NCBI GenBank assembly: GCA_015060005.1
Contig: SUZI01000002.1
Location: 218,177 to 282,176 of the forward strand
Direction: 5' to 3'
Source: Rikenellaceae bacterium
Lineage (GTDB): Bacteria > Bacteroidota > Bacteroidia > Bacteroidales > Rikenellaceae
Length of the DNA: 64,000 bases
Shown here: piece by piece, positions 21,894 through 35,974 of the stretch
How the letters are laid out: the number at the start of each line of letters is the position of its first letter
Numbering within the stretch: the stretch's first letter is position 1
Translations under genes and position numbers: made by a program
The notes under the pieces: model-generated
What the model was told of the DNA's origin: nothing
The model's input: the letters and a program-made list of their open reading frames with translations, nothing else
Databases searched by the model: none

Positions 21894-22059
21894 TCTCCTT
21901 TGTTGTAGAAAGTTTCTGCAAAGATAAGAAAACTCCCCGAAAAGAGAAAACAACTCCCAAAAAGCTTTTCATTTTCGGTTATTTACGTATAAATACCTAC
22001 ACGTGTTACGCCCAAAATTACGACCTTTGCGTAGTTTATTCACTAAAACTCAATAGATT

Positions 22060-23097
22060 ATGAAGAAATTTTTACTTTTAGTTTCACTTTTTGCCGCTAC
22101 GGTGTTCTCCGCTCAGGCACAGGATACCGACTCCAAGGTCGAGTCTTTGGAGGCTGATGTTGCGTCGCTCAACGAGCGTGCTGCTACGTGGGATAAGATT
22201 TTGAAGGCACTGCCCAAGATTTCGGGCTATGCACAGATTCGCTACGATTATAGCGATGTGGGCGAGGGTCTCTCTACCTTCCAGTTGCGTCGTGTACGTC
22301 TCTCGTTCGACGGAGCTATCTCTAAGAAGGTCGACTATAAGTTGCAGGCTGAGCTCACTTCGTTCAAGCTCGTCGATGCCTATTTCTCTTATAAGCCCTT
22401 CACTCAGTTCAATCTGCGTGTCGGTCAGCAGAAGTTACCTTTCTCTATCGAGAATACCGACTACGGTCCAACCAAGATTGAGCTCATCGACTATCCTATG
22501 GCTCTGACCTACCTCGTTGCTTATAGCGAGAAGCTGGGCGATACTACTCTCAAGGCTAACGGTCGTGATTTGGGCTTTAAGTTCTATGGCTCTTTCCTTA
22601 ACAAAGTCATCGGCTACGATGTGGGTATCTTCAACGGTGCTGGTTTGAATGTCAAGGATAACAATAAGTCGAAGGATGTCGTGGCACGTCTCTCTATCCG
22701 TCCTGTTGCAGGCTTGCTTATCTCAGGCTCATATATGTGGGGCGAGTGGGGTGCCGACTTCCTCAAGCGTGAGCGTTGGGGAGCAGGTATCTGCTACGAT
22801 AAGGGTGCTTGGTTGGCACGTTCGGAGTATATCGGTGGCACTACGGGCTCTACTACCAGCGATGGTGTCTATGCTATGGCGGGCTATCGTTTCTGTAAGA
22901 ATTTTATGGCTCTTGCACGCTACGACCGCTTCACTTGGGATACCGATGCTCGTTCAGCCTCTACCGATGAGAGCTATACCGTAGGTCTGCTGTGGCAGCC
23001 TGTTAAGTTCTTGCGTCTGCAGGCAAACTATATGTACCAGGACTTGCATACGGGCTGTGGCAATACATTCCAGATTCAGACATCTGCTATGTTCTAA
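22060..23097 (+). CDS. Porin (phosphate-selective porin O/P-like)
   Basis: Signal peptide, N-terminal coiled segment (LEADVASLNERAATWDKI), beta-strand periodicity, C-terminal F. Confidence 0.6.
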   Translation: MKKFLLLVSLFAATVFSAQAQDTDSKVESLEADVASLNERAATWDKILKALPKISGYAQIRYDYSDVGEGLSTFQLRRVRLSFDGAISKKVDYKLQAELTSFKLVDAYFSYKPFTQFNLRVGQQKLPFSIENTDYGPTKIELIDYPMALTYLVAYSEKLGDTTLKANGRDLGFKFYGSFLNKVIGYDVGIFNGAGLNVKDNNKSKDVVARLSIRPVAGLLISGSYMWGEWGADFLKRERWGAGICYDKGAWLARSEYIGGTTGSTTSDGVYAMAGYRFCKNFMALARYDRFTWDTDARSASTDESYTVGLLWQPVKFLRLQANYMYQDLHTGCGNTFQIQTSAMF

Positions 23098-23125
23098 CCA
23101 CTCCCTACGCGTGTTGGTTTAATGT

Positions 23126-23154
23126 AAGAGGCTCCCGCAGCCTCTTATTTTTTT
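23126..23154 (+). terminator. Rho-independent terminator of the porin gene
   Basis: AAGAGGCT (23126-23133) pairs with AGCCTCTT (23139-23146), followed by a T7 run (23148-23154). Confidence 0.75.
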
Positions 23155-23162
23155 GCCCCTCA

Positions 23163-23213
23163 CTCTTCCTCTTCCCCTCTCCTCTCTCCTCTCTCTCCTC
23201 TCTCTTCTTCCTC
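23163..23213. repeat. 51-nt pure polypyrimidine (C/T) tract
   Basis: Direct reading: only C and T between 23163 and 23213 (CTCTTCCTCTTCCCCTCTCCTCTCTCC...). Confidence 0.9.
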
Positions 23214-23214
23214 G

Positions 23215-23234
23215 CTCACTCACTCACTCACTCA
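23215..23234. repeat. (CTCA)5 tetranucleotide microsatellite
   Basis: Five perfect CTCA units directly after the polypyrimidine tract. Confidence 0.9.
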
Positions 23235-23252
23235 CGACGCCCTCGGTAACAC

Positions 23253-23272
23253 GGGTAACCAATTGGTTACCC
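23253..23272. repeat. Perfect 20-bp palindrome GGGTAACCAATTGGTTACCC
   Basis: The sequence is identical to its reverse complement. Confidence 0.9.
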
Positions 23273-23345
23273 GGAACATTTCGCCTTCTCCCTACGGTGT
23301 CGTGGGTAGCTTTTTACTCCCCACACCGCCAAAACTAAAAAGTAT

Positions 23346-23400
23346 TTTTCTATTGCGACTTTAATAACCCTTAGTATCCCTTAATAACCTTTAGCATCCC
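23346..23400 (+). repeat. Left copy of the intergenic repeat (21-nt core TTTTCTATTGCGACTTTAATA plus ~10-bp tandem units)
   Basis: The 21-nt core at 23346-23366 is identical to 35428-35448. It is followed by TAATAACCCT / TAGTATCCCT / TAATAACCTT / TAGCATCCC. Confidence 0.85.
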
Positions 23401-23752
23401 AAAAGTTTCGCGGGTAGTCTTTTTACTACCCACGACGACTAAAACTAAAATGTGAAAACTGAAAACCGAAATGTTAATTTTGAATTGTAAAACTCGTCAT
23501 TCCCCGCCTTGCCCTGCAAGGCGAAGGGAATCTACCTCATATAAATTCAAAGGTAAACTTAAACCTACAAACTGAAATCTCCTATCTCAGCCACAGACTT
23601 TACTCTCCCTTAATCTCCCTTAATATCCTTTAGCATCATAAAACTCTGCTTTCAATTCCACAACCCGAGTTGCGTTTTCAAATCTTAAAATTGCCATAAC
23701 TCCAATGTTTTAAGGTTAAAAAATGTAATTTGTTTTATAGGTATCAATAATA

Positions 23753-23795
23753 AAGGTCGGAGTGTCTACACTAATGCATAGACCACTCCGACCTT
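23753..23795 (-). terminator. Long hairpin terminating the island gene array
   Basis: AAGGTCGGAGTGTCTA pairs with TAGACCACTCCGACCTT (16 bp, one bulge). On the minus strand it lies 74 nt after the channel stop and is followed by the T-rich TTATTATTG. Confidence 0.65.
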
Positions 23796-23868
23796 CTTGG
23801 ATATTTCAAGAAAGTTAAATTACCCCCCCCCTATAGCGGATTTTAATGGGCTGTTATTTATCTGTCCG

Positions 23869-24720
23869 TCAAACATTTATATCCCCTTTTTGTCTATTTT
23901 TCTCCTTGTTTTTATGCTTGTCGTCGAGCACCTCCTGGTAGTTGTTGATGATTGCTCCGGTTACGACATTGAGCAGCAGGAACGCCGAGAGCACCACCCA
24001 CGTGATGTGGAACAGGTTGATTATCATCGGTGATGTGTTGATGAGCCCCAGCTCATACGCCTGCATACTATTGTATCTCACGTCAGCCCACGCATCACCC
24101 GTCAGCTCGCGGAAGAGTGTAAACATCGCCTCGCCCACGTTGGCAAATGGGTCGGGAGCACATTGTGGGACGTTAGATGCTGTCTGGCAATACTCCTCAT
24201 AGTTGGCTTTTAGCTGCTCCGATGCACTCTCCACGTCGGGCATACGGAACAGGCCGACACCGATGATTGCAAACAGATAGATGAATATCACGAAGAGTAT
24301 GATGTTGTAGAACATCGACACCAGCGAACGCAGCAACACCGATATTATGAGCTTTATCTCCTGCGACACACGCAGCAGTCTGAGCACGCGGAAGACTCTG
24401 ATAACACGCAGAGCCATCAGAGCTGATGGGTTTGTTATGATGGATGTCGGTATGTATCCTATCACCACTAACGTGAGGTCAAACAAGTTCCATCCGCTTG
24501 CGAAAAACTCCTTTGTGCTATCTGCGGCAATGAATCGTGCCAATATCTCGAAAGTGAATATTCCGAGAATGATTTTCTGCACCACAGTTATCGCCTCGCA
24601 GCTTACGGCGGTCTCCACGCCAATAAGTATCGAGTTCACTATGATTATTGCCGCTATAGTGAGCTCAAATATCTTGTTCTCCGTCAGCGACCGACAAAAC
24701 GATTTAAGTTGTTTATACAT
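23869..24720 (-). CDS. Voltage-gated-type ion channel subunit (6-TM, BacNav/NaChBac-like fold) with an atypical pore filter
   Basis: S4 with Arg every third residue (LRVIRVFRVLRLLRV). Pore loop MFTLFRELTGDAWADV followed by S6. 283 aa. Confidence 0.75.
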   Translation of the reverse strand: MYKQLKSFCRSLTENKIFELTIAAIIIVNSILIGVETAVSCEAITVVQKIILGIFTFEILARFIAADSTKEFFASGWNLFDLTLVVIGYIPTSIITNPSALMALRVIRVFRVLRLLRVSQEIKLIISVLLRSLVSMFYNIILFVIFIYLFAIIGVGLFRMPDVESASEQLKANYEEYCQTASNVPQCAPDPFANVGEAMFTLFRELTGDAWADVRYNSMQAYELGLINTSPMIINLFHITWVVLSAFLLLNVVTGAIINNYQEVLDDKHKNKEKNRQKGDINV

Positions 24721-24905
24721 AGTTGTTTTTTTCGTGTCTTACAGCTATCTTTTATCCGTTAATCTACATAATCCTGCATACCGAAATCCTTACCTTCGAG
24801 GCGAGAAACCATCTCCCGAGGAGCAATCAATTCTTCTCTCTGCTTGGTGTTGCTGCCCCAATATCTTGTATCCTCTTTATATGGTAAATATTGTCGGTAT
24901 CCGTC

Positions 24906-26666
24906 TTAGCAACTTTCAATGCTGTATTTCATTCTGTCACGCAGTACGTCGAGCAGTTTGGAGAACTCGGCAGGTCTGCCCTGCACGGTCGTAGGCCACT
25001 GCGATGTCAGCACAACCTCCTTGTCGGCGAGTTTAATTGTCGGCACATCGGGGCGACGACCAAAGAAGTCCACCTTTCCTTTCTCGTTCAGGATGTTGAG
25101 ATACTCGTTGTAGTCGAGGAATACGGTATCCATATTTTTCTTGAAAGCAAAAGCCTCCTTGAGCTGTTCGTGAGTGGTGCCGGGGTGCTCCGAGAGGTAG
25201 TACATCACCACATCGTTTACAAACTCCTTCTTTGTCGAGTATACCTTGCCGTTGAACTTGTACGACGATGTGTCGCGGTTGAACTTTGTAGGCTTCTTCA
25301 TCGGGCCATCAAAAGCCTTGAGGTTTGTTACAGCCGACATCTCGAGTGTTGCCTCAATTATCTCTCCCAGCTGGTCGTCATTGCCGACTATCTCTGCAAT
25401 CTTGTTGAGCAGTGTCGATACGCTGAAGGCTCTGTTGCTGAGGAATGTCTCCTTCTGGCACATACGATATACTATCTTCTCCCACTCTTCGTCGAACTCC
25501 TCCGTTTTGTCCAATACCTCTGACTCCTGTGCTGTCAGTGGACGGAGCTTGAGTTTCGATGCTATGGTCTCGTTCCAAGACTTGAAGTCGGGAGCCTCCG
25601 TCAACTGATTGTAGATATACGGATAAGCAATCTGTATGCAGACCAACGAGTAGTTGATGAGTTTGTCGAGTACTGTTATATTGTTCTGTGCTCCCGTCTG
25701 CTCCTCATAAATTATCGATATCAGGGCGAGGGTGTTTGTCAGTCGCTTCAGAGAGCGAGGGTTTGTACCTACCGAGAGACGTGTTATCTCCGACAGTTTC
25801 TCCGCCAGCGAAGGGTCTTTCAGCTCCTGGTCTGTGAAGAACTCTATCTTTCCCAGAGCATCCACCAGGAACGAGTCCACCGAGTACGAAGCCACCGGCA
25901 TAGAGAATGGCAGCTGAATTATCTTGTCGAAGAACGAACGGAACTCACGCTCGTTGGCATCTGTCAGCTCGCCGAACTTTGGTTTCAATCCTTTGATTAC
26001 TACGTCGTAGTCTATGGCGAGAATGAATACGCACTTCTCGAGGTCGAATATGTTCTTCAGCAGCTCCAGAATCTCCACCGCCACGGGTGGGTCTATACGG
26101 TCAAGATCGTCGATGTAGAACGTGAAGCCCTGCTTCGATGTATCCTTTGACAACGCCTCATCTATCAGCTTTGCAATCTCCTCCTTGAGCTGCGATATGT
26201 CCGATGCGGCACTCTCCTTGCCCTCGAAGAGATCATCTACCACTCCGCCATCGATGCCTACAGTGCCTGCGACCATCTTTGTACCTACCGATGCCATCTT
26301 CTTGAACAATCCGCCAATCTTACGTTTGCTCTCTGCCCACTTCTGGTCGCTTGGGTGGAGAGCTCCTATTTGGTTGATTATACCTTCAAGGATTGACATA
26401 ATGGCTTGCGATGGGGTCTTCATCAGCGAGTACTGCCAGGTGTTAATCCATACAGGGAAATATGGTGCATCGTTCACATCGCACAGGTTGTAACGCAACA
26501 GGTTCATCAGCGATGTCTTACCGCTTCCCCACTCACCCTGCAGGGCGATTGTTATCGGGGTGTCGGTCATACGAATATATTTAATCAAAGCATTCTGATA
26601 TGCCTGAATACCAAAAAGGTCCTCCTGCGTATGTTTACGCGGTACGTCTATTATGCTTGACTTCAT
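24906..26666 (-). CDS. KAP-family P-loop NTPase with an extra C-terminal domain
   Basis: Walker A LQGEWGSGKTSL. KAP-type Walker B FYIDDLDRIDP. NPRSLKRLTN motif. No TM insertion seen. The C-terminal ~115 aa resemble the N-terminus of the OmpA-like protein at 32224-33138. Confidence 0.75.
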   Translation of the reverse strand: MKSSIIDVPRKHTQEDLFGIQAYQNALIKYIRMTDTPITIALQGEWGSGKTSLMNLLRYNLCDVNDAPYFPVWINTWQYSLMKTPSQAIMSILEGIINQIGALHPSDQKWAESKRKIGGLFKKMASVGTKMVAGTVGIDGGVVDDLFEGKESAASDISQLKEEIAKLIDEALSKDTSKQGFTFYIDDLDRIDPPVAVEILELLKNIFDLEKCVFILAIDYDVVIKGLKPKFGELTDANEREFRSFFDKIIQLPFSMPVASYSVDSFLVDALGKIEFFTDQELKDPSLAEKLSEITRLSVGTNPRSLKRLTNTLALISIIYEEQTGAQNNITVLDKLINYSLVCIQIAYPYIYNQLTEAPDFKSWNETIASKLKLRPLTAQESEVLDKTEEFDEEWEKIVYRMCQKETFLSNRAFSVSTLLNKIAEIVGNDDQLGEIIEATLEMSAVTNLKAFDGPMKKPTKFNRDTSSYKFNGKVYSTKKEFVNDVVMYYLSEHPGTTHEQLKEAFAFKKNMDTVFLDYNEYLNILNEKGKVDFFGRRPDVPTIKLADKEVVLTSQWPTTVQGRPAEFSKLLDVLRDRMKYSIESC

Positions 26667-26790
26667 CTTTTCAAATTTTAACTTTCTTCTTCTGGCTAAG
26701 TTTGTCGTTCGTGAAAAACTTTTTATCAGCCGCTTGCGATGCGTTTTCTGTGTTATATCTCGGCTCCCTAATCTCGGTTGGGAGAGGTTG

Positions 26791-27564
26791 TTAGTTTGCT
26801 GCTGAGCAGCGGTTTGTTGCCTCTACGCGACGCGAATCATCATACGTTACGGTTGCTATGTTGTAGTCGTCTCCTCGTACTTCATCTTGTTCAAACGATG
26901 TCTTCACCTCCGTCTTGAAGAGCTTTGCCACCTTGGTTGCAAGGGCTATGTCATCGTTAGCCAATGCCATATTGAGTATCTGCTCGCATCGGTCATTGTA
27001 GAATCGCACCCACGTTTGATATACTACGTGGTCAATAGCCAACGAAGCACCCACGCCGGCATCATTGTCGTAGAACATTCCCGAGCCGTGTTTTCCCTCC
27101 GATAGGGGAGCTCCCTCTGTGGGTATGGCTACCAGCAACGATATGAGCTTGCTTGTCTTGTCTGCTGCCTCTCCGTAGTATATCGACGTAGCCTCCTGAC
27201 CGAAGATATATGCCATCGCCGTATGATATTGCTGCTGTTTTTGGCGAGCTTCTCTGTCGTTCCACGCTCCACCTCGCCACTTTCCGAACTCCTGGGTATA
27301 GTCGTTATAGAATGAGTTCAATACCTTTTTAGCCCCTACGAAGTCGCCTTCGGCACAGAGTGTGTAGTATTCCTGCTCTTGTTCCGTTGCTATTCCTGAG
27401 AAGCCACCACCGTCCATCGGATCGTTGTCGACATCTAATACTATCTGACTCAGCCCATACACCACGCCAACTATCACCAGAATAATTAGCCACTTACCTT
27501 TTATCAGCTTTGAAAATGTATGTGATCCTTTGCTTGAGGAATGGTTTTTTTCGTTAGTTTTCAT
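26791..27564 (-). CDS. Membrane-anchored protein of unknown function (one N-terminal TM)
   Basis: ATG start, basic N-terminus, then WLIILVIVGVVYGLSQIVL. 257 aa, no recognised motif. Confidence 0.5.
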   Translation of the reverse strand: MKTNEKNHSSSKGSHTFSKLIKGKWLIILVIVGVVYGLSQIVLDVDNDPMDGGGFSGIATEQEQEYYTLCAEGDFVGAKKVLNSFYNDYTQEFGKWRGGAWNDREARQKQQQYHTAMAYIFGQEATSIYYGEAADKTSKLISLLVAIPTEGAPLSEGKHGSGMFYDNDAGVGASLAIDHVVYQTWVRFYNDRCEQILNMALANDDIALATKVAKLFKTEVKTSFEQDEVRGDDYNIATVTYDDSRRVEATNRCSAAN

Positions 27565-27617
27565 ATGACCTCTTTTATTTGTTACATCCTTTCAATTTTC
27601 AATGATATGCCTTGCCA

Positions 27618-27639
27618 CATAGACTGCGAACAGTCTATG
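27618..27639 (-). other. Perfect 9-bp stem-loop with a UUCG tetraloop on the transcribed (minus) strand
   Basis: Plus strand reads CATAGACTG CGAA CAGTCTATG. Minus-strand RNA would be CAUAGACUG-UUCG-CAGUCUAUG. No U-run follows. Confidence 0.6.
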
Positions 27640-27662
27640 CCCCTTCGTTCTCATTTGGTGGT

Positions 27663-27905
27663 TTATCTGCACCTTCTCAGGGCATCTTTTGTTCTCTCAA
27701 TCTCTGCTTTCCAGCCCTCTATGCGGCGGTCGTGGTATGCAGCCTTGTCAATCTTGTTTTTGCGATACGAAGCCTTTGAGTATGACGACGATGCATTCTT
27801 TATCAGTCGTGCGTAGCTGTCGTTGTCGCGTTTCTTTGCCTCACGCTCATCCGATATGTAGCGTCGTAGGTCTATCAGCTTCTTCTTGTAATACTCTTTA
27901 CTCAT
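27663..27905 (-). CDS. Small basic coiled-coil-like protein, unknown function
   Basis: 80 aa, ATG start, K/R/E-rich (MSKEYYKKKLIDLRRYISDEREAKKRD...). Confidence 0.45.
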   Translation of the reverse strand: MSKEYYKKKLIDLRRYISDEREAKKRDNDSYARLIKNASSSYSKASYRKNKIDKAAYHDRRIEGWKAEIERTKDALRRCR

Positions 27906-27941
27906 AGTGCTTATTTTTTAAGGTTATTATTTCTTTTTTTG

Positions 27942-28253
27942 TTACATCCTTTCGATAATCAACTGCACCATATACACAGCGAATACCCACGCAGCAAAGC
28001 TCCACGCATATCCCAACACTGCTGTCACGCTGAAGCTGAATATCTGGTTCTTAGATTTTGCCCAGAACCAACGTGGGGGTATGTCGTTGCCGTATGCTAC
28101 CATACCGAATATCAGTCCTACCACTCCCACGGCTCCGCCATAGATTAACATCTCTGGCTCGTCGTAGACTATACATCCGATAAGTCCAAATGCCCCAATA
28201 GTGTTTACTATCGGAGCCAACAGGTTGATTATATATGCAATAACAAGAATCAT
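27942..28253 (-). CDS. Small integral membrane protein (about 3 TM)
   Basis: 103 aa, three hydrophobic stretches, ATG start. Confidence 0.5.
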   Translation of the reverse strand: MILVIAYIINLLAPIVNTIGAFGLIGCIVYDEPEMLIYGGAVGVVGLIFGMVAYGNDIPPRWFWAKSKNQIFSFSVTAVLGYAWSFAAWVFAVYMVQLIIERM

Positions 28254-28412
28254 AATCCAAAAATTAAACTACTTACCGATTCCAAATATTATTGTTCCAA
28301 TATCAAAAATTAACATAGATGAACTATTTAATTATAAACTCCTCTTAACGGGTCCATACCCGCATATATATCACTCTAAAGGAGCTGTGCCAACTCCTCC
28401 TTTGCGTTGTTT

Positions 28413-29000
28413 TTACTTCCAAACACCCTTCTTACAACCACTCTTCTCGCACTCGGCGTTGAACGACGCAAGAGTCTTATCATCGCTGGTTGATGATGTG
28501 TAGTAACGATGATTCTCGCCATTAGTGTAGCACACCTGGCAGTAGAGTCCGAATACTGTATCAAACTCCTTCTCAAGCGACTTAATCTTCTTGTTGCCCG
28601 ATATTGAGATGTCGCCACCAGAGTCGGCACGACGTACCGATGCGAGTGTCCTGTCATCTGGAATTCGACCACCCAATGAGTCACCTTTCTTTACCATCTC
28701 TCGGCTATAACTATAGCATACATAGAGGTTCAGATAGGGGAACTTTTTGTTGAACTCCTTACGCAAAGTACCCACCTTCTTGTTACCCGTAACCGATATC
28801 TCTGTTGCACTCTTTGAGGTGGTAGTAGTCTTCTTCGCTGCAGGTTTTGCTGCGGCAGTCTTCTTTGTAGCTGTGGCAGTAGTCTTCTTCGCTGCTGTAG
28901 TGGTCTTTTTCGCAGCTGCACTCTTTGTAGCACTCTTCTTAGCCGCTGTAGTGGTCTTCTTAGCTGTGGTTGTTTTCTTGGTTGTAGTAGTCTTTGCCAT
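28413..29000 (-). CDS. Lys/Thr/Ala-rich (histone-H1-like low-complexity) N-terminus fused to two copies of the island-specific ~50-aa module
   Basis: N-terminus MAKTTTTKKTTTAKKTTTAAKK... Modules GNKKVGTLRKEFNKKFPYLNLYVCY...DDRTLASV and GNKKIKSLEKEFDTVFGLYCQVCY...DDKTLASF. Confidence 0.6.
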   Translation of the reverse strand: MAKTTTTKKTTTAKKTTTAAKKSATKSAAAKKTTTAAKKTTATATKKTAAAKPAAKKTTTTSKSATEISVTGNKKVGTLRKEFNKKFPYLNLYVCYSYSREMVKKGDSLGGRIPDDRTLASVRRADSGGDISISGNKKIKSLEKEFDTVFGLYCQVCYTNGENHRYYTSSTSDDKTLASFNAECEKSGCKKGVWK

Positions 29001-29030
29001 AGTAGTAGTTTTTTAGGTTTCTTTGTGATA

Positions 29031-29052
29031 TGAGGTGCGGTCAGGCACCTCA
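29031..29052 (-). other. Intergenic hairpin with the conserved core GGTGCGGTCAGRCACCT
   Basis: TGAGGTGC pairs with GCACCTCA (8 bp, 6-nt loop). It lies between the stop at 29072 and the start at 29000. A 17-nt core recurs at 30550-30566 with one mismatch. Confidence 0.55.
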
Positions 29053-29071
29053 TACCTGTGTGTCGAGCCGA

Positions 29072-29386
29072 TTATTTACCAGCAGCAGCGAGAGTGATGT
29101 CGTTGTCAGCCAACTTCTTATCATCCTTGTCAGCTACCTGTACGCCGATACCGTACAACTCAGCAATCTTCTTCTCGAAGCTACCTACGCGGAGGTTGCT
29201 ACCTACAACGAGCTCGCCGCCCTTGTAACCCTCAGCACGCAATGAAGCGAGTGTAGCGTCCTCATCAGCCATAGCACCCTTGCAGGTTACGCTCTTGTAA
29301 ACACGCAAAGTTGCACCAAATGTCTTCTTAAAGTTGTCCTTCAAGCTCTTGACCTTCATACGGCCATCCAATTTGAAATCTGCCAT
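29072..29386 (-). CDS. Small protein made of two ~50-aa modules (A-B architecture), unknown function
   Basis: 104 aa. Module A MKVKSLKDNFKKTFGATLRVY...DEDATLASL. Module B LRVGSFEKKIAELYGIGVQVADKDDKKLADNDITLAAA. Confidence 0.6.
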   Translation of the reverse strand: MADFKLDGRMKVKSLKDNFKKTFGATLRVYKSVTCKGAMADEDATLASLRAEGYKGGELVVGSNLRVGSFEKKIAELYGIGVQVADKDDKKLADNDITLAAAGK

Positions 29387-29423
29387 AGTTTTTAAGTTTT
29401 TAGTTTGTTAATAAAATAGAGTG

Positions 29424-29630
29424 TTAGTTATTCTTCTTCTCGTTAAGAAAATCTACAAGTTTAGACCCAAACTGACGTGTGTTCCACGCAGGGTCATACT
29501 CGAAGCCCTCCTTCTCTGCAATCTCTCGCAGGGCTCCCTTCACATTGTCGTATATGCGATAAATCTCTATAGCACCGTTATCCAGTACCGATACTACATA
29601 CTCGCCCGAAATTACCGACTTCTTTGCCAT
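29424..29630 (-). CDS. Small soluble protein, unknown function
   Basis: 68 aa, ATG start, 37 nt upstream of the next gene in the array. Confidence 0.45.
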   Translation of the reverse strand: MAKKSVISGEYVVSVLDNGAIEIYRIYDNVKGALREIAEKEGFEYDPAWNTRQFGSKLVDFLNEKKNN

Positions 29631-29674
29631 TTTTTACTTTTTTATAGGTTAATAAAGTTCTCCAAACTCCCTGT

Positions 29675-29833
29675 TTAGAATATATCTTGTCCAAAAAAAG
29701 TTATTCCGAGATCAACACCGAAACACTTCTCGAAAATGAGCTGTGCAAGTGTCAGCACCGCTGCCAACGCCAGCAGAGCAAGAGCAACCGTCTTGCCCGT
29801 CACCACCGTCTTCTGTCTCTTCCTTCGTGCCAT
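29675..29833 (-). CDS. Unlisted 52-aa single-pass membrane micro-protein
   Basis: Hand-translated: MARRKRQKTVVTGKTVALALLALAAVLTLAQLIFEKCFGVDLGITFFGQDIF, ATG at 29831-29833, TAA at 29675-29677. It fills an otherwise empty 225-nt gap and starts 22 nt after the upstream stop. Confidence 0.45.
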   Translation of the reverse strand: MARRKRQKTVVTGKTVALALLALAAVLTLAQLIFEKCFGVDLGITFFGQDIF

Positions 29834-29855
29834 AATTACTGCTTTAAGTTTAGTG

Positions 29856-30524
29856 TCAAATAGTTACAATCTGATAGTAAAATTTCACATCATCAACAAT
29901 TTTGTCTCTCCACGCAATGGTGTACGAATTCTCCAGCTCAAATGACTTGTATGACTTCATTTGTGCACACGCACTCTGCTCGTTTTGCCAATGTTTAATT
30001 GGCGAGTGCGTACCCTCGGTTAAATTCAGCAGATAGTTATTCGACTCTTTCCTGCTTCCTTTGACATAGTATTCGTCGTTTGTTACGAACACCGCTAACC
30101 CTCCTTTGACTCGCTCAAAGCGGTTGCGTACCAGCTCCACGCGACGCACATCCTTCCAGAAGTCGTACATTCCCAGGTCCTGAGCTCCTTGATTTTTCAT
30201 CACTACTACTTTGTCTTTCAGCTCTTCATCAAAGCGTGTGATTGTACGCTCCACCTTTCGGGTTTTGTATTTCAGCTCCACAGGGCAATACTCGCCATCT
30301 TTTCTGACCACTATGTCGAGTCTGAGCTCGCTGTCCCATATATAGTTCTCAAGCTCACTCTTAGGCACATAATACTCCACGTCGACATCGTCGTAGTGGT
30401 TTGCCGACTTACGCAGCCACGTAGCTAAATGCATCTGCAGGTCTCGCTCATTGAATAACAACTCCTCGTTGCTCTCTATGAAAGCGAAAACATCTGCCCG
30501 AACAATCTCTACCAAACTTGCCAT
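29856..30524 (-). CDS. PD-(D/E)xK nuclease-fold candidate
   Basis: From the ATG at 30524 (MASLVEIV...). Motif SELRLDIVVRKDGEYCPVELKYK matches D ... E-x-K spacing of PD-(D/E)xK enzymes. The track start at 30614 adds 30 unlikely residues. Confidence 0.45.
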   Translation of the reverse strand: MASLVEIVRADVFAFIESNEELLFNERDLQMHLATWLRKSANHYDDVDVEYYVPKSELENYIWDSELRLDIVVRKDGEYCPVELKYKTRKVERTITRFDEELKDKVVVMKNQGAQDLGMYDFWKDVRRVELVRNRFERVKGGLAVFVTNDEYYVKGSRKESNNYLLNLTEGTHSPIKHWQNEQSACAQMKSYKSFELENSYTIAWRDKIVDDVKFYYQIVTI

Positions 30525-30635
30525 AAAAATTTCCTTTTTTGTACCTCTGGGTGCGGTCAGACACCTGCTCCCCGAATATCTGTTCTCCTCTTCGTTGTTG
30601 CTAAATACTGCCACAAGGGGGATTTAGGGGAAATC

Positions 30636-31142
30636 TTATGCACCCCTGAAATAATCACTTACCCTTGATGCTGCAAGAGTGATGAGAACCGCAATGGCGA
30701 CAGTTATAATACCCGTAAGAATAGTCCACCACTTCCACAAAATTATTTGTGCAATGATGGCGATGACTGCCAATGCCCAAATAACTATATTGACGATATT
30801 CCTGCGGGCGTTCTCCTTGAAATCTTCGCAGAAGTTTGCTGTGAAAAATGCAATAACAGCAGTTACAGGTCCTGTTGCCAAGGTCCACCATCCAAAGAAG
30901 ATAGCCTGCACAATAATGAGCACAAGAGCCAAAGACCAGACGCTCAAACGAATGATTCGTTTCGTCGAGTCTACAGGTTTTGCGTCATTGTCACAATCCT
31001 TAGGAGTCCTCTTCCTTCTCTTAATGTACTCTATTTCATCATCTTCCTCCTCGAGAGAGTCTTCCTGATCCATTTCGGAGTCATCATCAATCAAGGTTTC
31101 CGCTTTGGTCATTACCTTTTCTAATAAATTATCCATTTTCAT
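30636..31142 (-). CDS. Four-TM membrane protein with an acidic N-terminal tail and an internal 2-TM duplication
   Basis: N-terminus is D/E-rich (DDDSEMDQEDSLEEEDDEIEY). Repeats VWSLALVLIIVQAIFFGWWTLATGPVTAVIAFF and VIWALAVIAIIAQIILWKWWTILTGIITVAIAVL. Confidence 0.55.
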   Translation of the reverse strand: MKMDNLLEKVMTKAETLIDDDSEMDQEDSLEEEDDEIEYIKRRKRTPKDCDNDAKPVDSTKRIIRLSVWSLALVLIIVQAIFFGWWTLATGPVTAVIAFFTANFCEDFKENARRNIVNIVIWALAVIAIIAQIILWKWWTILTGIITVAIAVLITLAASRVSDYFRGA

Positions 31143-31180
31143 ATTCTGTAAATCTTAATAGAGTAAATATTCCGTGTTGT

Positions 31181-31543
31181 TTAATACTCGCCGCGTGCAG
31201 CCTGACCTATGGTAATGCCATTTGGAACGAGCTTGGTGCCTTTGGCATCCTTGATCTGAACTGTTACGCCGAAGTTCTGGTCAAAGAGCTTCTCTGCGTC
31301 GCCCACCTTCATACTCGCTTTGATTTTCAATCCATCGGCAGTCGACTTCACATCTTTGGTTGTCTTTTTGTTGAGTGCCGCCAATGTCAGGTCGCCATCC
31401 GCAATCTGTGCTCCCTTGTAGAATACAAGCGAGAGGTTGAACGCCTTCTTAAAGTCTGCCGACAAAGTCTTCAATTTCTTGTTTGGAGCCACTGTGAACT
31501 CGCCACTCTTGAAGTTGTCTAAGATATTATTCAAAATTCCCAT
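31181..31543 (-). CDS. Small protein made of two ~50-aa modules (A-B architecture), paralog of 29072-29386
   Basis: From the ATG at 31543 (MGILNNILDNF...). Module A KKLKTLSADFKKAFNLSLVFY...DGDLTLAAL. Module B MKVGDAEKLFDQNFGVTVQIKDAKGTKLVPNGITIGQA. Confidence 0.6.
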   Translation of the reverse strand: MGILNNILDNFKSGEFTVAPNKKLKTLSADFKKAFNLSLVFYKGAQIADGDLTLAALNKKTTKDVKSTADGLKIKASMKVGDAEKLFDQNFGVTVQIKDAKGTKLVPNGITIGQAARGEY

Positions 31544-31594
31544 ATTATTGTGTAAAATGTTTATTATGCTGTGTTTCACCGACTTATCACGCCA

Positions 31595-31620
31595 CACAGG
31601 GAGCTGTCATACTCCCTGTG
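31595..31620 (-). other. Perfect 9-bp intergenic hairpin
   Basis: CACAGGGAG (31595-31603) pairs with CTCCCTGTG (31612-31620). It lies between the TerB-like stop (31636) and the next start (31543). Confidence 0.55.
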
Positions 31621-31635
31621 TCGGTGTGCGTTTTT

Positions 31636-32046
31636 TTAGAAGGCGAGTTCCAGTTCTTCCTCCTCCTTTGCCAAATCTATGATGAGCAATACTGCGCGAG
31701 CATCGTCAATACCCAGAGCCGAAGCCACTGCGAGCAGGTTATCCACCTCCTCTGTGCCGAGTACGCCATCGACAATTGCAATCTGCAGAGCCGCCTCGAA
31801 AACTATCTCAGCCTCCTCCTCGTCAATTTCCGCAGAGTTGTTGAGTATATACTCGTTCACCTGCTCCTCGTTCATATTCTCCACTTCACCTAAGGCAGCC
31901 TCCACTGCTGCTGTCAGCTCAGCGTTATCCAGCTCCAAAGCCTCAGCTATCTCCTCGACAGCCACCTTCTCAGCCTCATCGTATACTCCGTCAGCCCAAA
32001 CGACTGTTGCCAGCACTGCGGCAAGATTCTTAATATCGGTATTCAT
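31636..32046 (-). CDS. TerB-like (tellurite-resistance TerB / DjlA N-terminal fold) protein
   Basis: 136 aa, very acidic. Two helical repeats with the ADG/VDG..E signature (VVWADGVYDEAEKVAVEEIAEAL and IAIVDGVLGTEEVDNLLAVASALG). Confidence 0.6.
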   Translation of the reverse strand: MNTDIKNLAAVLATVVWADGVYDEAEKVAVEEIAEALELDNAELTAAVEAALGEVENMNEEQVNEYILNNSAEIDEEEAEIVFEAALQIAIVDGVLGTEEVDNLLAVASALGIDDARAVLLIIDLAKEEEELELAF

Positions 32047-32047
32047 A

Positions 32048-32200
32048 CTATTTGAACAATCTTAAAATGCGGTTTTTCAAACTATTTTTCTCCTTGCGGG
32101 CTTTTGCCATACGGGCACATATTGCCTTACCCTCCTTGGTACGCTTGTCGACAGTACCACTCTTGGTCTTTTTGACCGAAGTTGTTTTCTTAACAGCCAT
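32048..32200 (-). CDS. Unlisted 50-aa lysine-rich micro-protein, translationally coupled to the TerB-like gene
   Basis: Hand-translated: MAVKKTTSVKKTKSGTVDKRTKEGKAICARMAKARKEKNSLKNRILRLFK. ATG at 32198-32200, TAG at 32048-32050, and one base before the TerB-like ATG (32044-32046). Confidence 0.5.
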   Translation of the reverse strand: MAVKKTTSVKKTKSGTVDKRTKEGKAICARMAKARKEKNSLKNRILRLFK

Positions 32201-32223
32201 AATATCAATGTTTTATAATAATT

Positions 32224-33138
32224 TTACTCCAAAATAATGAACTCTGTACGACGGTTAGCCTCTGGGTTGCTCTCGTCGATAGGCTCCGATGAGCCCTTGC
32301 CTTCAGACTCCAGACGCTCAGCAGCGATGCCGCGTGATACGAGGAAGTCAACCGCAGCCTTGGCACGCTCCTCCGAGAGACGCTGGTTGAACGCAGCATC
32401 GCCCTCCGATGATGTGTGTCCTACGAGCTTAAGTCTGAGCTCTGGGTGCTTCTCCATCAGCTGCTGCAGGTCGTGCAATACGAACTTGGCATCGTCTGAG
32501 AGGTCAGCCTTACCCTTCACGAATGTAGCGTTGTTGAAATCCTTCTCAATCTCCTCTACGCGGTCCACGTAGACGATTTTCTCCACCTCTACAATCTTCT
32601 CGACCTCTACAACCTTCTCTACCTCTACTACCTCCTTCTCGGCAGGCTTCAGAGCGAAGAAAGCAGCTACGCCACCTACGAGCAGGAGCAGCAGGAGCCA
32701 CAACCACCACAACGACTTCTTCTTACCCGGCATAGGTGGCACGTAGCCATTCAGATACTCCAGACGAAAACCGCCCTTCTTGCCACCCTTGTCTGCAGCC
32801 TCAAACGATGCAATCTCTATATCGTATAGTTTGGCGTGCGACACCATACGCTCAAAACTTGGTTTTGTCCACATCTTTACTACCGACACCCTCTTATTGT
32901 CGCCCATTGTGAGCAACTCATCTTCTGCCTTGAAGTATCCGTCCCAATCTGCAGTTGTACCCTTATCTTCGGCGTAAACGAAGTTCTCTTTCACTCCTTT
33001 GTCGGGGTTTAACTCATTTGGAAATGCCTTACGCAAATCCTCTAAAGTTGCTTGCGGGTACATCACCATATATGCGTGTGCAATACCCAATGCGGTACGG
33101 TTTTGTGCCTTACCATAGACTCTTACTTTACTTGCCAT
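32224..33138 (-). CDS. Membrane-anchored OmpA-family peptidoglycan-binding protein with a novel N-terminal cytoplasmic domain
   Basis: C-terminal OmpA_C motifs (LVGHTSSEGDAAFNQRLSEERAKAAVDFL, NRRTEFI). One TM (LWWLWLLLLLLVGGVAAFFAL). (V/I)VEVEK repeats. The N-terminal ~125 aa resemble the KAP NTPase C-terminus. ATG at 33138 preferred; the track start is 33171. Confidence 0.7.
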   Translation of the reverse strand: MASKVRVYGKAQNRTALGIAHAYMVMYPQATLEDLRKAFPNELNPDKGVKENFVYAEDKGTTADWDGYFKAEDELLTMGDNKRVSVVKMWTKPSFERMVSHAKLYDIEIASFEAADKGGKKGGFRLEYLNGYVPPMPGKKKSLWWLWLLLLLLVGGVAAFFALKPAEKEVVEVEKVVEVEKIVEVEKIVYVDRVEEIEKDFNNATFVKGKADLSDDAKFVLHDLQQLMEKHPELRLKLVGHTSSEGDAAFNQRLSEERAKAAVDFLVSRGIAAERLESEGKGSSEPIDESNPEANRRTEFIILE

Positions 33139-33559
33139 AACATTATTATTTTTTTTGGTTTGATCTTTCAAGTGGGGCTTACATTTTACTACGCTTGGTG
33201 CATAAAAACAGAAAGCGTAGACTAATTACTTAATCTCCGCTGATAGGTCCTAGGAAAACCGTGGTAAGAAGAAAAAAGCAACAGCCTACGCCAAGAATGC
33301 GTACACCGGGTGGTATACACAACCAGCGATAGGGTTTGTCCTCTCTTACCGTAAATGAATTTCCTAGGTTCATCAGCGAGAATGACAAACACTTTCGTGT
33401 AAATCAAAATATTTCCACAAATATATGAAAAAATTTGACAAAACCTACCAACACCTCTAAAAATCTGACATTTCAAGGAGTTTTCGAGGGGCGGGCTGTT
33501 GCTGTTACAAAGATATGAAATGTTGACAAAGGAGAATTTGTCTTTTGTTGTCTTATTGA

Positions 33560-34729
33560 CTACTCTTCGGGATATGGAGTGTATTGTAAATTGTTGTTGC
33601 GTAGCGAGTCGTAGTAAACTATCTGTTCCAAATCCGACTCGATGTAATACGAGGACATTGTATCCATTGCTGCCACCGCTTCTAAGTAGCGTTGCTGATA
33701 TATCTCCCCATATTTTGTTGCTACAATTGCTTGTTCCGCCTCATCAAGCGTCTCTGCTGTTATCGCTTTGCTGAGCGAGTCGCATCGCTCCCACATAATG
33801 AGTACTTCCTGAGTTGCAAACTCTATATAATGAGATGCTTTGATGTGTTCAATCGAGGTGTTGCAAATCTCGTTTATTCCACTCTGCATCCTTTGGATTA
33901 GCTCCTTGCGATGTCTCTCTTTTCGGTGTGTCCTCACCACCCACAATGTCTGTACAGCCACTGCCGAGATAATGATTATCGCTACCAGCAGATTGAGGGC
34001 AACCCTCCAGCCTCGGTTGTGGCGGTGCCACGCACGCTGTAACTCCTCGATGTTGGCATATCGTTTTGCAGGGATGGCATTGGTGCATCGTTTGGTAATA
34101 GACGACACTCCCAACATCTCCATCATTATAATACCTATGCTATATATATCACTGCGAGCATCTATCCTGTCGGCGTGTGCCTGCAACTCGGGTGAGGCGT
34201 AGCGGGGTGTACATCCCAAGCTACGCAGGGCATACTCTGCATCGCTGTCTGCCAATCCGAAGTCGATAAGTTTCAGTGTGTTATCCGCACGTGTTATGAG
34301 TATGTTGTCGGGCTTCAGGTCGTTGTGTATTATGCCTCGTTTGTGGAGATATCCGACAGCCGCTATCAGCTCTGCGAATATGCGTTGGCGTTCCTTTTTG
34401 GATGGATTTTCTGCTATGAACTCTGTGAGTGTTCGCCCCTCGATATACTCCATCACTATGCCCATTCCTATGGGCAGCTGTTCTATGGTGTAGATGTGAA
34501 CGATGTTGTGGTGGTCGCACTCTAACGACAATTCATACTCGCGACGTAGCATACGTTGCTGAGCTTCCGAGTTGTCTTTTGTTGTCTTTATCAAGAAACG
34601 TTTACCATTTTTATGGGCTATCCAAAGACGTGATAGTGCAGTGATTCTCAACTCGTTAAAGTCGTGAAACTCCTCTGTGATAATTCCATTTGAGCCTCCT
34701 TGTTCTCTTATTTCACTCTCTTCTACCAT
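33560..34729 (-). CDS. Hanks-type Ser/Thr protein kinase with one TM and a C-terminal helical domain
   Basis: Catalytic loop IIHNDLKPDNILI, DFGLAD, ASPE, and the beta-3 Lys in FLIKT. TM LLVAIIIISAVAVQTLWVV. The ATG at 34729 is preferred; the track start at 34750 is a TTG. Confidence 0.75.
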   Translation of the reverse strand: MVEESEIREQGGSNGIITEEFHDFNELRITALSRLWIAHKNGKRFLIKTTKDNSEAQQRMLRREYELSLECDHHNIVHIYTIEQLPIGMGIVMEYIEGRTLTEFIAENPSKKERQRIFAELIAAVGYLHKRGIIHNDLKPDNILITRADNTLKLIDFGLADSDAEYALRSLGCTPRYASPELQAHADRIDARSDIYSIGIIMMEMLGVSSITKRCTNAIPAKRYANIEELQRAWHRHNRGWRVALNLLVAIIIISAVAVQTLWVVRTHRKERHRKELIQRMQSGINEICNTSIEHIKASHYIEFATQEVLIMWERCDSLSKAITAETLDEAEQAIVATKYGEIYQQRYLEAVAAMDTMSSYYIESDLEQIVYYDSLRNNNLQYTPYPEE

Positions 34730-34747
34730 ATTGGAATTTTTGTTTGT

Positions 34748-34768
34748 CAAAGATAATAATTATTTTTG
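34748..34768. promoter_or_regulatory. Back-to-back TAnnTTTG (-7) boxes of a divergent promoter pair
   Basis: Minus strand TATCTTTG (plus CAAAGATA, 34748-34755) lies 18 nt before the kinase ATG. Plus strand TATTTTTG (34761-34768) lies 5 nt before the ATG at 34774. Confidence 0.4.
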
Positions 34769-34773
34769 CAAAT

Positions 34774-35364
34774 ATGAGCATCCGTCGTGATATACCACAA
34801 ATTCGTGTTTTGCGTGAACGCGTTGAGAGACGTTTTGGTAAGCGTTTTTCGGTGCACGCCGACTTTTTGGCATTGGTGTCGGTTATTGAGATGGAGTTGC
34901 GTCAACACATCTCCGAGAGCACTCTGGAGCGTGTGTGGGGCTACTCTACGCGAGGCTATGACACCGTTTCGCTCCGTACTCTCGATGTCCTGTCGACCTA
35001 TGCTGAGGGGTGTAGTTGGCACGACTTCTGTCATCGTTTGCAGATGGCGGCTGAGAGCGAGTCGGAGCTCTTCAGCGTTGAGCATATCTCTACTGCCGAT
35101 TTACAGGTAGGTGATCGTCTGCAGATAGGCTGGCTTCCCGACCGACGTTGTGTTATTCGCTATGTGGGTGATAATCGTTTTATGGCAGAGAGTTGCGAGA
35201 ACTCCAAGATGCAGCCAGGCGACAGCTTTTCGTGTCTGCAGTTCACGCTTGGCAAGGAGCTTGTTATGTGTGATTTCATTCCGTTTAACACCTCCTCTCC
35301 CACCTCACAGTCCTATATCGTCGGCAGCCGCAATGGCTTGACCTCCCTCTGCATCGTGCACTAA
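34774..35364 (+). CDS. Hypothetical protein, possibly HTH-containing, divergent from the kinase
   Basis: From the ATG at 34774 (MSIRRDIPQIR...). ISESTLERVWGY resembles an HTH recognition segment. The C-terminal half is beta-rich. No family recognised. Confidence 0.4.
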   Translation: MSIRRDIPQIRVLRERVERRFGKRFSVHADFLALVSVIEMELRQHISESTLERVWGYSTRGYDTVSLRTLDVLSTYAEGCSWHDFCHRLQMAAESESELFSVEHISTADLQVGDRLQIGWLPDRRCVIRYVGDNRFMAESCENSKMQPGDSFSCLQFTLGKELVMCDFIPFNTSSPTSQSYIVGSRNGLTSLCIVH

Positions 35365-35427
35365 TCTTCTGTGCAAATTTTCGGCAGGAAGACTTTAGCC
35401 TCGCCAAAACTGAAGGGTAAAAGGTAC

Positions 35428-35512
35428 TTTTCTATTGCGACTTTAATATCCTTTAATATCCCTTAGTATCCCTTAACAACCCTCAATTTAACAACCCTCA
35501 ATTTAACCTCCC
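35428..35512 (+). repeat. Right copy of the intergenic repeat (identical 21-nt core plus ~10-bp tandem units)
   Basis: TTTTCTATTGCGACTTTAATA at 35428-35448 matches 23346-23366 exactly. It is followed by TCCTTTAATA / TCCCTTAGTA / TCCCTTAACAACCC / TCAATTTAACAACCC / TCAATTTAACCTCCC. Confidence 0.85.
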
Positions 35513-35974
35513 ATTCCTCTTCCCTAATACTCATTTTCCCAAAAATGTGGATGTTTTTTGAGCTCTTCTCTTCAATTGCTATTTTCACTAACCTATATTT
35601 TCTGCCGCACCTAAAAGTTGTAATCGACAGAAAAACAATCTTTTAACATTTGCTCTTTTCTATAACTATCCACTTTTTTTGAAAATTTCGCCAGGCAAAA
35701 TCCACTCTGCCACGCCCTTTTCTTTGCCGTTATCTTGTCTGTTCCACTTATTACACGTAGGTTGTTTTGCTCAAAAGCGTGATTTTCAGCGTGTTGCAAT
35801 TTTCTAAAATCTATATTTTTACTTTATCACTTCGATAAATGGCACTTTCGAACGATTATTATCACTAACTTAGTGATACGATTAAGCGGCGAGCCTAAGC
35901 CCAGCGAGCAGAAGATGTTGTTTGGTCGGAAAGCCTAAACTCACTATACAAAACTAACTAATAACTAAAAGCCT

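Follow-up and report, generated by a model that had tools for sequence, protein, structure and literature searches.

An alpha/beta domain common to a KAP-family NTPase and an OmpA-like membrane-anchored protein in a variable gene island of Bacteroidales

A stretch of 64,000 nucleotides from a Rikenellaceae bacterium (assembly GCA_015060005.1, contig SUZI01000002.1, positions 218,177 to 282,176; hereafter the window, to which coordinates given without a locus name refer) encodes, on its minus strand, a KAP-family P-loop nucleoside triphosphatase (NTPase) of 586 amino acids (24906-26666) and an OmpA-like membrane-anchored protein (32224-33138). According to a preliminary description of the window, the C-terminus of the former and the N-terminus of the latter share a domain of about 115 amino acids, which raises the question of whether the two segments are indeed one domain and what such a domain might do at this locus. 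We find, with hardly any room left for doubt, that the two segments are homologous and represent one domain. We regard this domain as a mobile component of a variable, membrane-associated island of several genes that occurs in Bacteroidales.

When the two segments were compared with each other directly, BLASTP returned no alignment at E ≤ 100. Smith-Waterman alignment with the BLOSUM62 matrix gave a score of 57, as compared to 29.0 ± 4.9 for 2000 shuffles, none of which equalled it (z = 5.7), and the BLOSUM45 matrix gave z = 7.1. The two conserved blocks noted in the preliminary description are placed by Smith-Waterman in a single collinear alignment. In the same description, a score no better than that of shuffled controls was named as the outcome that would speak against a shared domain, and the real score exceeds all of them. 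The pairwise evidence is weak but not null.

The profile evidence is strong, and rises as the profile broadens. Narrow families collected around the two segments (271 matches by word-index search for the OmpA type; 23 matches for the KAP type, every one a fragment of an orthologous KAP protein) were aligned by hhalign at 71–75% probability (E ~3e-5). Seeded with OmpA-type sequences only, HMMER was run exhaustively over 1.84 billion representatives and retrieved 685 proteins at E ≤ 1e-3; the best 150 representatives of this search supplied the 138 domain instances from which a broad profile was built. Aligned to the KAP family, this broad profile reached 96.9% probability (E = 1.7e-10, score 61.5, 88 columns), compared with scores of 12.4 ± 2.6 (maximum 20.6) for 100 column shuffles of the KAP alignment and 11.2 for the reversed KAP alignment. 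The probability was 96.7% upon removal of one intermediate protein (P0250) and 96.4% with N-terminal instances alone. Similar results were obtained within the window, where, among 541 six-frame open reading frames (ORFs), the top non-self match of each profile was the other segment at the expected position, the broad profile giving E = 1.5e-4 for the partner segment and 4.1 for the runner-up ORF. In addition, at E < 1e-3 the KAP profile picks up over 40 of these 150 OmpA-type representatives in a constant register, and both P0250 and a short variant of the domain, described below, are matched by both profiles as intermediates.

AlphaFold2 models of the two copies, generated from separate alignments, had predicted local distance difference test (pLDDT) values of 85.7 for the OmpA type and 88.9 for the KAP type, and agree in the succession of their secondary-structure elements (strand, helix, helix, strand, variable insert, strands, helix, strand). 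In the hhalign register, secondary structure agrees at 73% of columns, as opposed to 29–48% when the register is shifted, a comparison made by sequence register and not by superposition. Taken together, the hhalign value, the shuffle controls and the models bear out the shared domain proposed in the preliminary description.

Within the KAP protein, the NTPase domain occupies residues 22–316, contains the Walker A motif GEWGSGKTS and matches Pfam KAP_NTPase (PF07693) with 126.5 bits (E = 1.7e-36; cut-off 20), in agreement with its assignment to this family. The PADLOC profiles PifA, PDC-S20 and QatA match the protein within residues 5–435, and all leave the C-terminal domain untouched. This KAP-type copy extends over residues ~469–586 (24909-25262), with an hhalign-aligned core at residues 484–583 (24918-25217), and is 43–97% identical to orthologues. 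A hydropathy scan of the whole KAP protein revealed no transmembrane-like stretch, since the top 19-residue value was 1.52 and none reached 1.6.

In the OmpA-like protein, the shared domain covers ORF residues 12–146 (32734-33138) as defined by an OmpA-type family alignment (A1), with a core aligned to the KAP copy at residues 29–114 (32830-33087). Both segments accordingly lie where the preliminary description had placed them, except that the OmpA-type copy extends further than assumed there, to residue 146 (...GGFRLEYLNGYVPP, 32734). The mechanical ORF opens at a TTG at 33171, but homologues all begin with MASK or MVNK, which identifies the ATG at 33138 as the true start. As also described earlier, the domain precedes a single transmembrane helix, which our hydropathy scan places at residues 152–178 (32638-32718) directly after the residues KKK. 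This N-side flank, together with the lack of a signal peptide in the OmpA-like protein, makes a cytoplasmic location of the shared domain the natural inference. The C-terminal part is formed by an OmpA/MotB-type peptidoglycan-associating domain at residues 216–307 (32251-32526; Pfam PF00691, 62.8 bits, E = 4e-17, cut-off 27.2), which is also matched by several NCBIfam OmpA-like models, every one below its family cut-off. In OmpA-like domains, the stem peptide of peptidoglycan is bound by a conserved pair of Asp and Arg. The family to which the present protein belongs reads GHTSSEG where many OmpA-like domains have GHTD, and keeps the Arg of ..ERA, so that, from this by-eye reading, the usual peptidoglycan-contacting Asp appears to be replaced by Ser.

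The shared domain is an alpha/beta unit of about 110–135 residues. Its first strand is followed by two helices, one of 15 residues and one short, and by a second strand; after a variable insert, which is helical in KAP-type copies, come a hairpin with an invariant Trp at its end, a helix of 12–14 residues and the last strand. In the OmpA type, an additional invariant strand (RLEYLNG) follows a Gly/Lys-rich linker of low model confidence and directly precedes the membrane helix. Invariant positions in alignment A1 are Y8, K10, A11, Q12, R14, W90, K92, E127, Y128, N130 and G131. Across subfamilies, conserved columns are of hydrophobic or turn character only (Y, V, L, F, L, W and a near-invariant D in a turn), and the cross-subfamily column comparison identified no common set of polar residues; invariant polar residues are instead subfamily-specific, namely KAQNR, WTK and LEYLNG in the OmpA type and NRD and WPT..G.P in the KAP type. 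Because no polar residues are common to the subfamilies, the domain is probably non-enzymatic. Both copies are near neutral in charge (20 K+R to 19 D+E, and 18 to 17).

The preliminary description had left the domain unnamed, and we likewise found no name for it: scans of the full proteins against Pfam, NCBIfam, PADLOC and PHROGs, and of the isolated segments against Pfam, left the domain itself uncovered save for a sub-threshold match to DUF7381 (PF24100). This match is confined to the first half of the KAP-type copy (15–17 bits, E = 0.008, cut-off 27), is absent from the OmpA-type copy and recurs in just 3 of 12 diverse domain members (E ≤ 1), and we therefore rejected an assignment to DUF7381. 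A profile search of the PDB by sequence gave only noise at E ≥ 0.03 (ribosomal protein L28, prion protein and the uncharacterised entry 2mca), and Foldseek searches with both models against the PDB, and with the KAP model against BFVD, gave nothing at E ≤ 0.001, with best template modelling (TM) scores of about 0.25. A phage origin was rejected because the OmpA-type domain was matched in a single one of 2.9 million viral contigs.

As to the proteins that carry it, the domain occurs most commonly either with a membrane helix alone (complete proteins of about 165 amino acids on long contigs, numerous in the family and lacking an OmpA domain) or with a membrane helix, a linker and an OmpA domain. 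OmpA is carried by 49 of 109 long representatives, while others carry PDDEXK_4, AAA_5 or TerB; a KAP NTPase was not found among the 109 scanned. The position of the domain varies (N-terminal, internal or C-terminal), and tandem arrays of two or four copies exist.

Several of these fusions involve types of protein that are encoded next to the KAP and OmpA-like genes in the window, where they are presented below. The p252-type domain is joined to the shared domain, on either side, in 12 of 150 representatives; p104-type fusions were found in four proteins (P0164, P0274, P0217 and P0170), and single proteins combine the shared domain with the p138 type (P0176), the p195 type (P0277) and TerB (P0177). 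PDDEXK_4 fusions are represented by P0176 and by loci L064/L065. The C-terminus of this PDDEXK_4 protein (L065) carries the short variant of the domain, which is 81% identical to that at the C-terminus of a second KAP paralogue in locus L084, and this identity therefore points to a recent transfer of the module between NTPase and nuclease. In L084, two KAP genes lie in tandem (180-1901 and 1909-3675), one with a window-type C-terminal domain and the other with the shorter variant.

A search with a mixed KAP-type alignment yielded few new proteins, among them stand-alone proteins composed of a short ribbon-helix-helix-like N-terminus and the domain. P0291, P0292, P0293 and P0250 carry a stand-alone or tandem domain behind such an N-terminus, with weak matches to SeqA_N, VapB-antitoxin and DUF7557, and P0292 (L117, 8001-8525) sits among transposase, resolvase, replicase and ParE/Phd toxin-antitoxin genes, a plasmid-like context. 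Some OmpA-type proteins (L021, 9617-10882; P0050, P0238 and P0283) add an uncatalogued N-terminal domain of about 60 residues with the pattern ..YG.Y.I....G.v.V..NG......K.alrEia...G......WnTrq.G.KL..fl, which is present twice at the C-terminus of P0238 and absent from the window.

In the window, the two genes are part of a minus-strand gene run that spans 23869-35364, with a divergent gene at its kinase end. Listed by coordinate, and all on the minus strand, it contains an Ion_trans channel gene (23869-24720; Pfam), the KAP gene, p257 with one membrane helix (26791-27564), the small basic protein p80 (27663-27905), the membrane protein p103 (27942-28253), p195 (28413-29000), the small protein p104 (29072-29386), p252 (29856-30614), the membrane protein p168 (30636-31142), p138 (31181-31597), a very acidic TerB-domain protein (31636-32046; Pfam TerB, E = 3.2e-10), the OmpA-like gene, and a Ser/Thr protein kinase with one transmembrane helix (33560-34750; Pfam Pkinase, E = 3.8e-38). 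The kinase also matches the PADLOC mad6 and PD-T4-6 kinase profiles. On the plus strand, p224 (34690-35364) has no assigned function; it probably belongs to the island, and 33 of the fetched loci contain a homologue at E ≤ 1e-20. Of the genes in the island, Pfam identifies the channel, KAP, TerB, OmpA and kinase genes only, and scans against NCBIfam, PADLOC and PHROGs added nothing for the others. The G+C content is 0.44–0.48 in the island (22000-36000) and 0.50–0.55 in its flanks.

The proteins p104, p138 and p195 are paralogous (p138 is 32% identical to p104, E = 2e-12), and each contains an uncatalogued repeat twice. The repeat is about 45 residues long (pattern ..V..LK..F.K.FG..v.vy..). 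None of the three proteins has a match in Pfam, PHROGs or PADLOC, and p104 has none in the PDB. The N-terminal 60 or so residues of p195 form a low-complexity Lys/Thr/Ala-rich tail (KKTTTAKKTTTAAKK...) that is reminiscent of DNA-binding tails of the histone H1 kind; over its whole length, the protein contains 41 K+R and 16 D+E. In the p252 family, D70, E83 and K85 are invariant, and from this D...ExK motif alone p252 is probably PD-(D/E)xK nuclease-like; it has no sequence match in Pfam or the PDB, profile search included. Its true start is probably an internal ATG (MASLVEIV...) rather than the GTG at 30614.

At least 685 protein clusters at 50% identity hold the shared domain at E ≤ 1e-3, and relatives were found in 268 genomes in a scan of one genome per species. 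Neighbourhoods were counted in the best 80 of these 268 genomes, within 10 kb around the OmpA-type gene. All 80 are Bacteroidales (Alistipes, other Rikenellaceae, Bacteroidaceae, Alloprevotella, Prevotella, Muribaculaceae and Porphyromonas). Homologues of p104 are present in 74 of the 80 loci, p138 in 69, p195 in 60, TerB in 55, p80 in 51, the kinase and p252 in 41 each, p103 in 28, KAP in 10 and the channel in 9. The steadiest neighbour of domain-bearing genes is p104, which also occurs in most KAP-anchored loci with enough flanking sequence.

Besides the window, 7 genome loci and about 30 metagenome loci encode the domain at a KAP C-terminus. The constant part of KAP-anchored loci is the triad p104 – p80 – KAP (L090, L095 and L105), with p80 directly upstream of KAP, and L090 displays a compact operon of p252, domain plus membrane helix, TerB, p104, p80 and KAP. 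Two size-matched ORFs (about 221 and 435–448 amino acids) lie directly downstream of KAP in L090 (10428-12401) and L095 (10397-12396); the window differs in that the ion channel gene follows KAP and the two extra ORFs are missing. The housekeeping flanks of the window are not conserved beside the island in the fetched loci, whereas p224 recurs in 33 of them, and the island therefore occupies different genomic places.

The OmpA-type domain shows 95–98% protein identity across assemblies labelled Alistipes, Rikenellaceae and Bacteroidaceae, which points to horizontal transfer or binning errors. The 8.6-kb metagenome contig JAEIGA010028204.1 (L081) shares 100% protein identity with the window KAP C-terminus over 131 residues, as well as neighbouring island homologues, and probably derives from the same or a nearly identical organism.

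What might the domain do? The preliminary description had read its presence on an NTPase and on an envelope-tethered protein as a sign of functional coupling. The more general part of this claim stands, in that one recurrent neighbourhood and the fusions to other island genes provide good contextual evidence of shared function; a specific pairing of KAP with OmpA does not emerge, as a KAP gene lies near just 10 of 80 OmpA-type loci. Tentatively, we favour a role of the domain as the common docking or recognition module of the island, a proposal that falls slightly short of what we would call probable. Docking is the simplest account because shared catalytic residues are lacking, the anchor, NTPase and nuclease modules attached to the domain are interchangeable, and the domain is fused, across genomes, to most of the constant parts of the island. 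In such a model, the domain would attach interchangeable parts (a membrane or peptidoglycan anchor, an NTPase, nucleases) to a common partner or assembly, and its docking partner could be either another copy of the domain or a constant small protein, with the p104-type repeat proteins as the steadiest candidates rather than the other copy. The parts of the island comprise the Ser/Thr kinase, the membrane anchor with or without OmpA, TerB, p104/p138/p195, p80, the PD-(D/E)xK-like protein and sometimes KAP. Transmembrane helices in or next to the NTPase domain are typical of the KAP family, if not universal. The window KAP protein lacks them, and the domain could therefore be its route to the membrane; it would bring the soluble NTPase to an inner-membrane complex held by the OmpA-like protein.

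The island as a whole is most likely an anti-phage or envelope-stress system, a reading that we regard as plausible. A fuller version of the model, which we consider possible but rather doubtful, would see in the domain a new fold that serves as the assembly hub of an undescribed, horizontally mobile immunity or envelope-stress system with many components in gut Bacteroidales; heterotypic pairing of the two old subfamilies, or common binding of p104-type proteins, would recruit the soluble KAP and PD-(D/E)xK nucleases to a peptidoglycan-tied anchor in the inner membrane, with the kinase, TerB and small membrane proteins (here also an ion channel) alongside.

Several observations weigh against the docking model, and in particular against direct contact between the two copies in the window. 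Among the 13 KAP loci with about 10 kb of upstream sequence, 6 have no OmpA-type gene within 10 kb even though their KAP domain copy is intact, and conversely a KAP gene lies within 10 kb at only 10 of the 80 OmpA-type loci; direct pairing of KAP and anchor is therefore not obligatory. When all further terminal copies are considered, one is found near the KAP gene in the window and 15 other loci, and 6 of 13 well-covered loci have none within 10 kb. Moreover, same-locus copies are just 22% identical (maximum 25%), as compared to 41–100% (KAP type) and 33–100% (OmpA type) identity to their own subfamily across loci. Because identity is 22% within a locus and 41–100% to orthologues, the two copies are, as judged from their sequences, old and anciently diverged subfamilies and not a co-evolving homotypic pair. 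Pairs from one locus score little higher than pairs across loci (46.2 as compared to 42.1; permutation p = 0.003), and many of the loci are near-duplicates. The subfamily-specific polar invariants likewise would fit different binding partners better than homotypic pairing. Finally, the suggested defence role draws on the likeness of KAP and kinase to defence-library profiles, on the lower G+C content and on the variable genomic position.

Some of these observations would be accommodated if the domain were a sensor, such that each carrier independently binds one small molecule or invader-derived component, and the proteins share an input without touching one another. The domain is indeed kept on KAP NTPases that have no OmpA-type gene nearby, it forms tandem arrays of two and four copies, its stand-alone form behind a ribbon-helix-helix-like N-terminus in a plasmid-like context has a layout typical of ligand-responsive regulators, and the subfamily-specific invariant polar residues could line a pocket. 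However, no polar residues are kept across subfamilies, which makes a single common ligand unlikely, Foldseek gives no known ligand-binding fold, and assembly offers a simpler explanation for the fusion of the domain to most of the island's structural parts. We regard sensing as possible, yet rather unlikely.

Less likely still is that the domain binds DNA or another nucleic acid, and so would target the nucleases and the NTPase to their substrate or, in anchored proteins, tether that substrate to the membrane. The repeated PD-(D/E)xK-type fusions (PDDEXK_4 in P0176 and L064/L065, and the p252 type in 12 representatives), the association with a ribbon-helix-helix-like N-terminus, the basic histone-tail-like p195 and the basic p80 within the island, and the two helices in the first half of the domain would be in line with such a function. 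In contrast, both copies are near neutral in charge, neither sequence nor structure resembles solved DNA-binding folds, and most members are membrane-anchored without a nuclease domain. That the resemblance of the two copies merely reflects chance or convergence of unrelated alpha/beta segments, as the empty BLASTP comparison, the identity of just ~22% and the 71–75% probability of the narrow profiles could suggest, is very improbable given the broad-profile E value of 1.7e-10 with all 100 shuffles far lower, the reciprocal matches within the window, a register that stays constant over dozens of members, the intermediates P0250 and the short variant matched by both profiles, and the collinear predicted secondary structure.

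The docking model has precedents. The coupling of an NTPase core to effectors by a domain present at the termini of both is a well-known arrangement in bacterial conflict systems (PMC7159879; Kaur, Burroughs, Iyer, Aravind 2020). The effector-associated domains (EADs) of NTP-dependent conflict systems are small non-enzymatic domains at the terminus of a core NTPase that recur on neighbouring output proteins, and are defined, among other features, by homotypic interaction of their copies (PMC7159879). The window domain resembles these in being terminal on a core NTPase (the KAP C-terminus), in having, at some of the loci, copies terminal on other proteins of the neighbourhood with varied outputs (OmpA, PDDEXK_4, the p252 type and TerB), where several per protein are possible, and in lacking enzymatic features, its 110–135 residues placing it at the large end of the class. 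However, one of the features that define EADs fails here, as copies within a locus have closer relatives elsewhere (22% same-locus identity), and the KAP gene frequently has no second copy in its vicinity. In addition, the window domain exceeds EADs in size, is of alpha/beta type and shows no sequence relationship to any Pfam entry, the core is KAP and not STAND, MoxR or a GTPase, and the hosts are gut Bacteroidales and not multicellular bacteria.

KAP NTPases are reportedly membrane-inserted as a rule (Aravind et al. 2004). A more recent study likewise describes them as typically membrane-inserted, and has shown KAP NTPases with variable C-terminal regions to be antiphage, the C-terminal region being required for defence (PMC13552941). 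The window protein is akin to these in that its NTPase domain is followed by a C-terminal region without a known domain. Those antiphage proteins are, however, single-gene systems with membrane helices, whereas the window KAP protein has none and belongs to a multi-gene island, in which its C-terminus is a defined domain common to other island proteins. PifA of the F plasmid and QatA show likeness to the NTPase part only: the PifA profile (E = 5.3e-33) covers residues 5–315, and the QatA profiles (E = 1.3e-23) match short stretches within residues 149–260. Membership of the Qat system was rejected, as the QatA NCBIfam match reaches 89 bits against a cut-off of 600 and scans of the island proteins gave no QatB, QatC or QatD, and membership of the PifA system was rejected after PADLOC and NCBIfam scans.

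The OmpA-like protein, in turn, has the layout of MotB and ZorB, with a cytoplasmic N-terminus, one membrane helix, a linker and a C-terminal OmpA-like domain, and the ZorB profile matches its OmpA part weakly (E = 8.4e-5). It differs from both by a folded cytoplasmic domain of 135 residues in place of a short tail, and by its many relatives without OmpA. Since neither ZorA nor MotA was matched by any of the island proteins scanned, we rejected membership of a Zorya system or a MotA/MotB stator.

Literature searches revealed no published description of this gene combination. New are an undescribed domain family and an undescribed island, whereas their organisational logic is known. The domain is common, yet lies outside curated families and resembles no solved or viral predicted structure. 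It ties together about ten genes, mostly unannotated, in dominant gut bacteria whose defence and stress systems are poorly charted, and hundreds of proteins now called "hypothetical" or "OmpA family" could be annotated with the help of the two profiles obtained in this work. Should docking prove to be its function, the domain would reveal how a KAP NTPase that lacks membrane helices gets to the membrane, and would extend the shared-adaptor logic of other bacterial conflict systems to the Bacteroidales.

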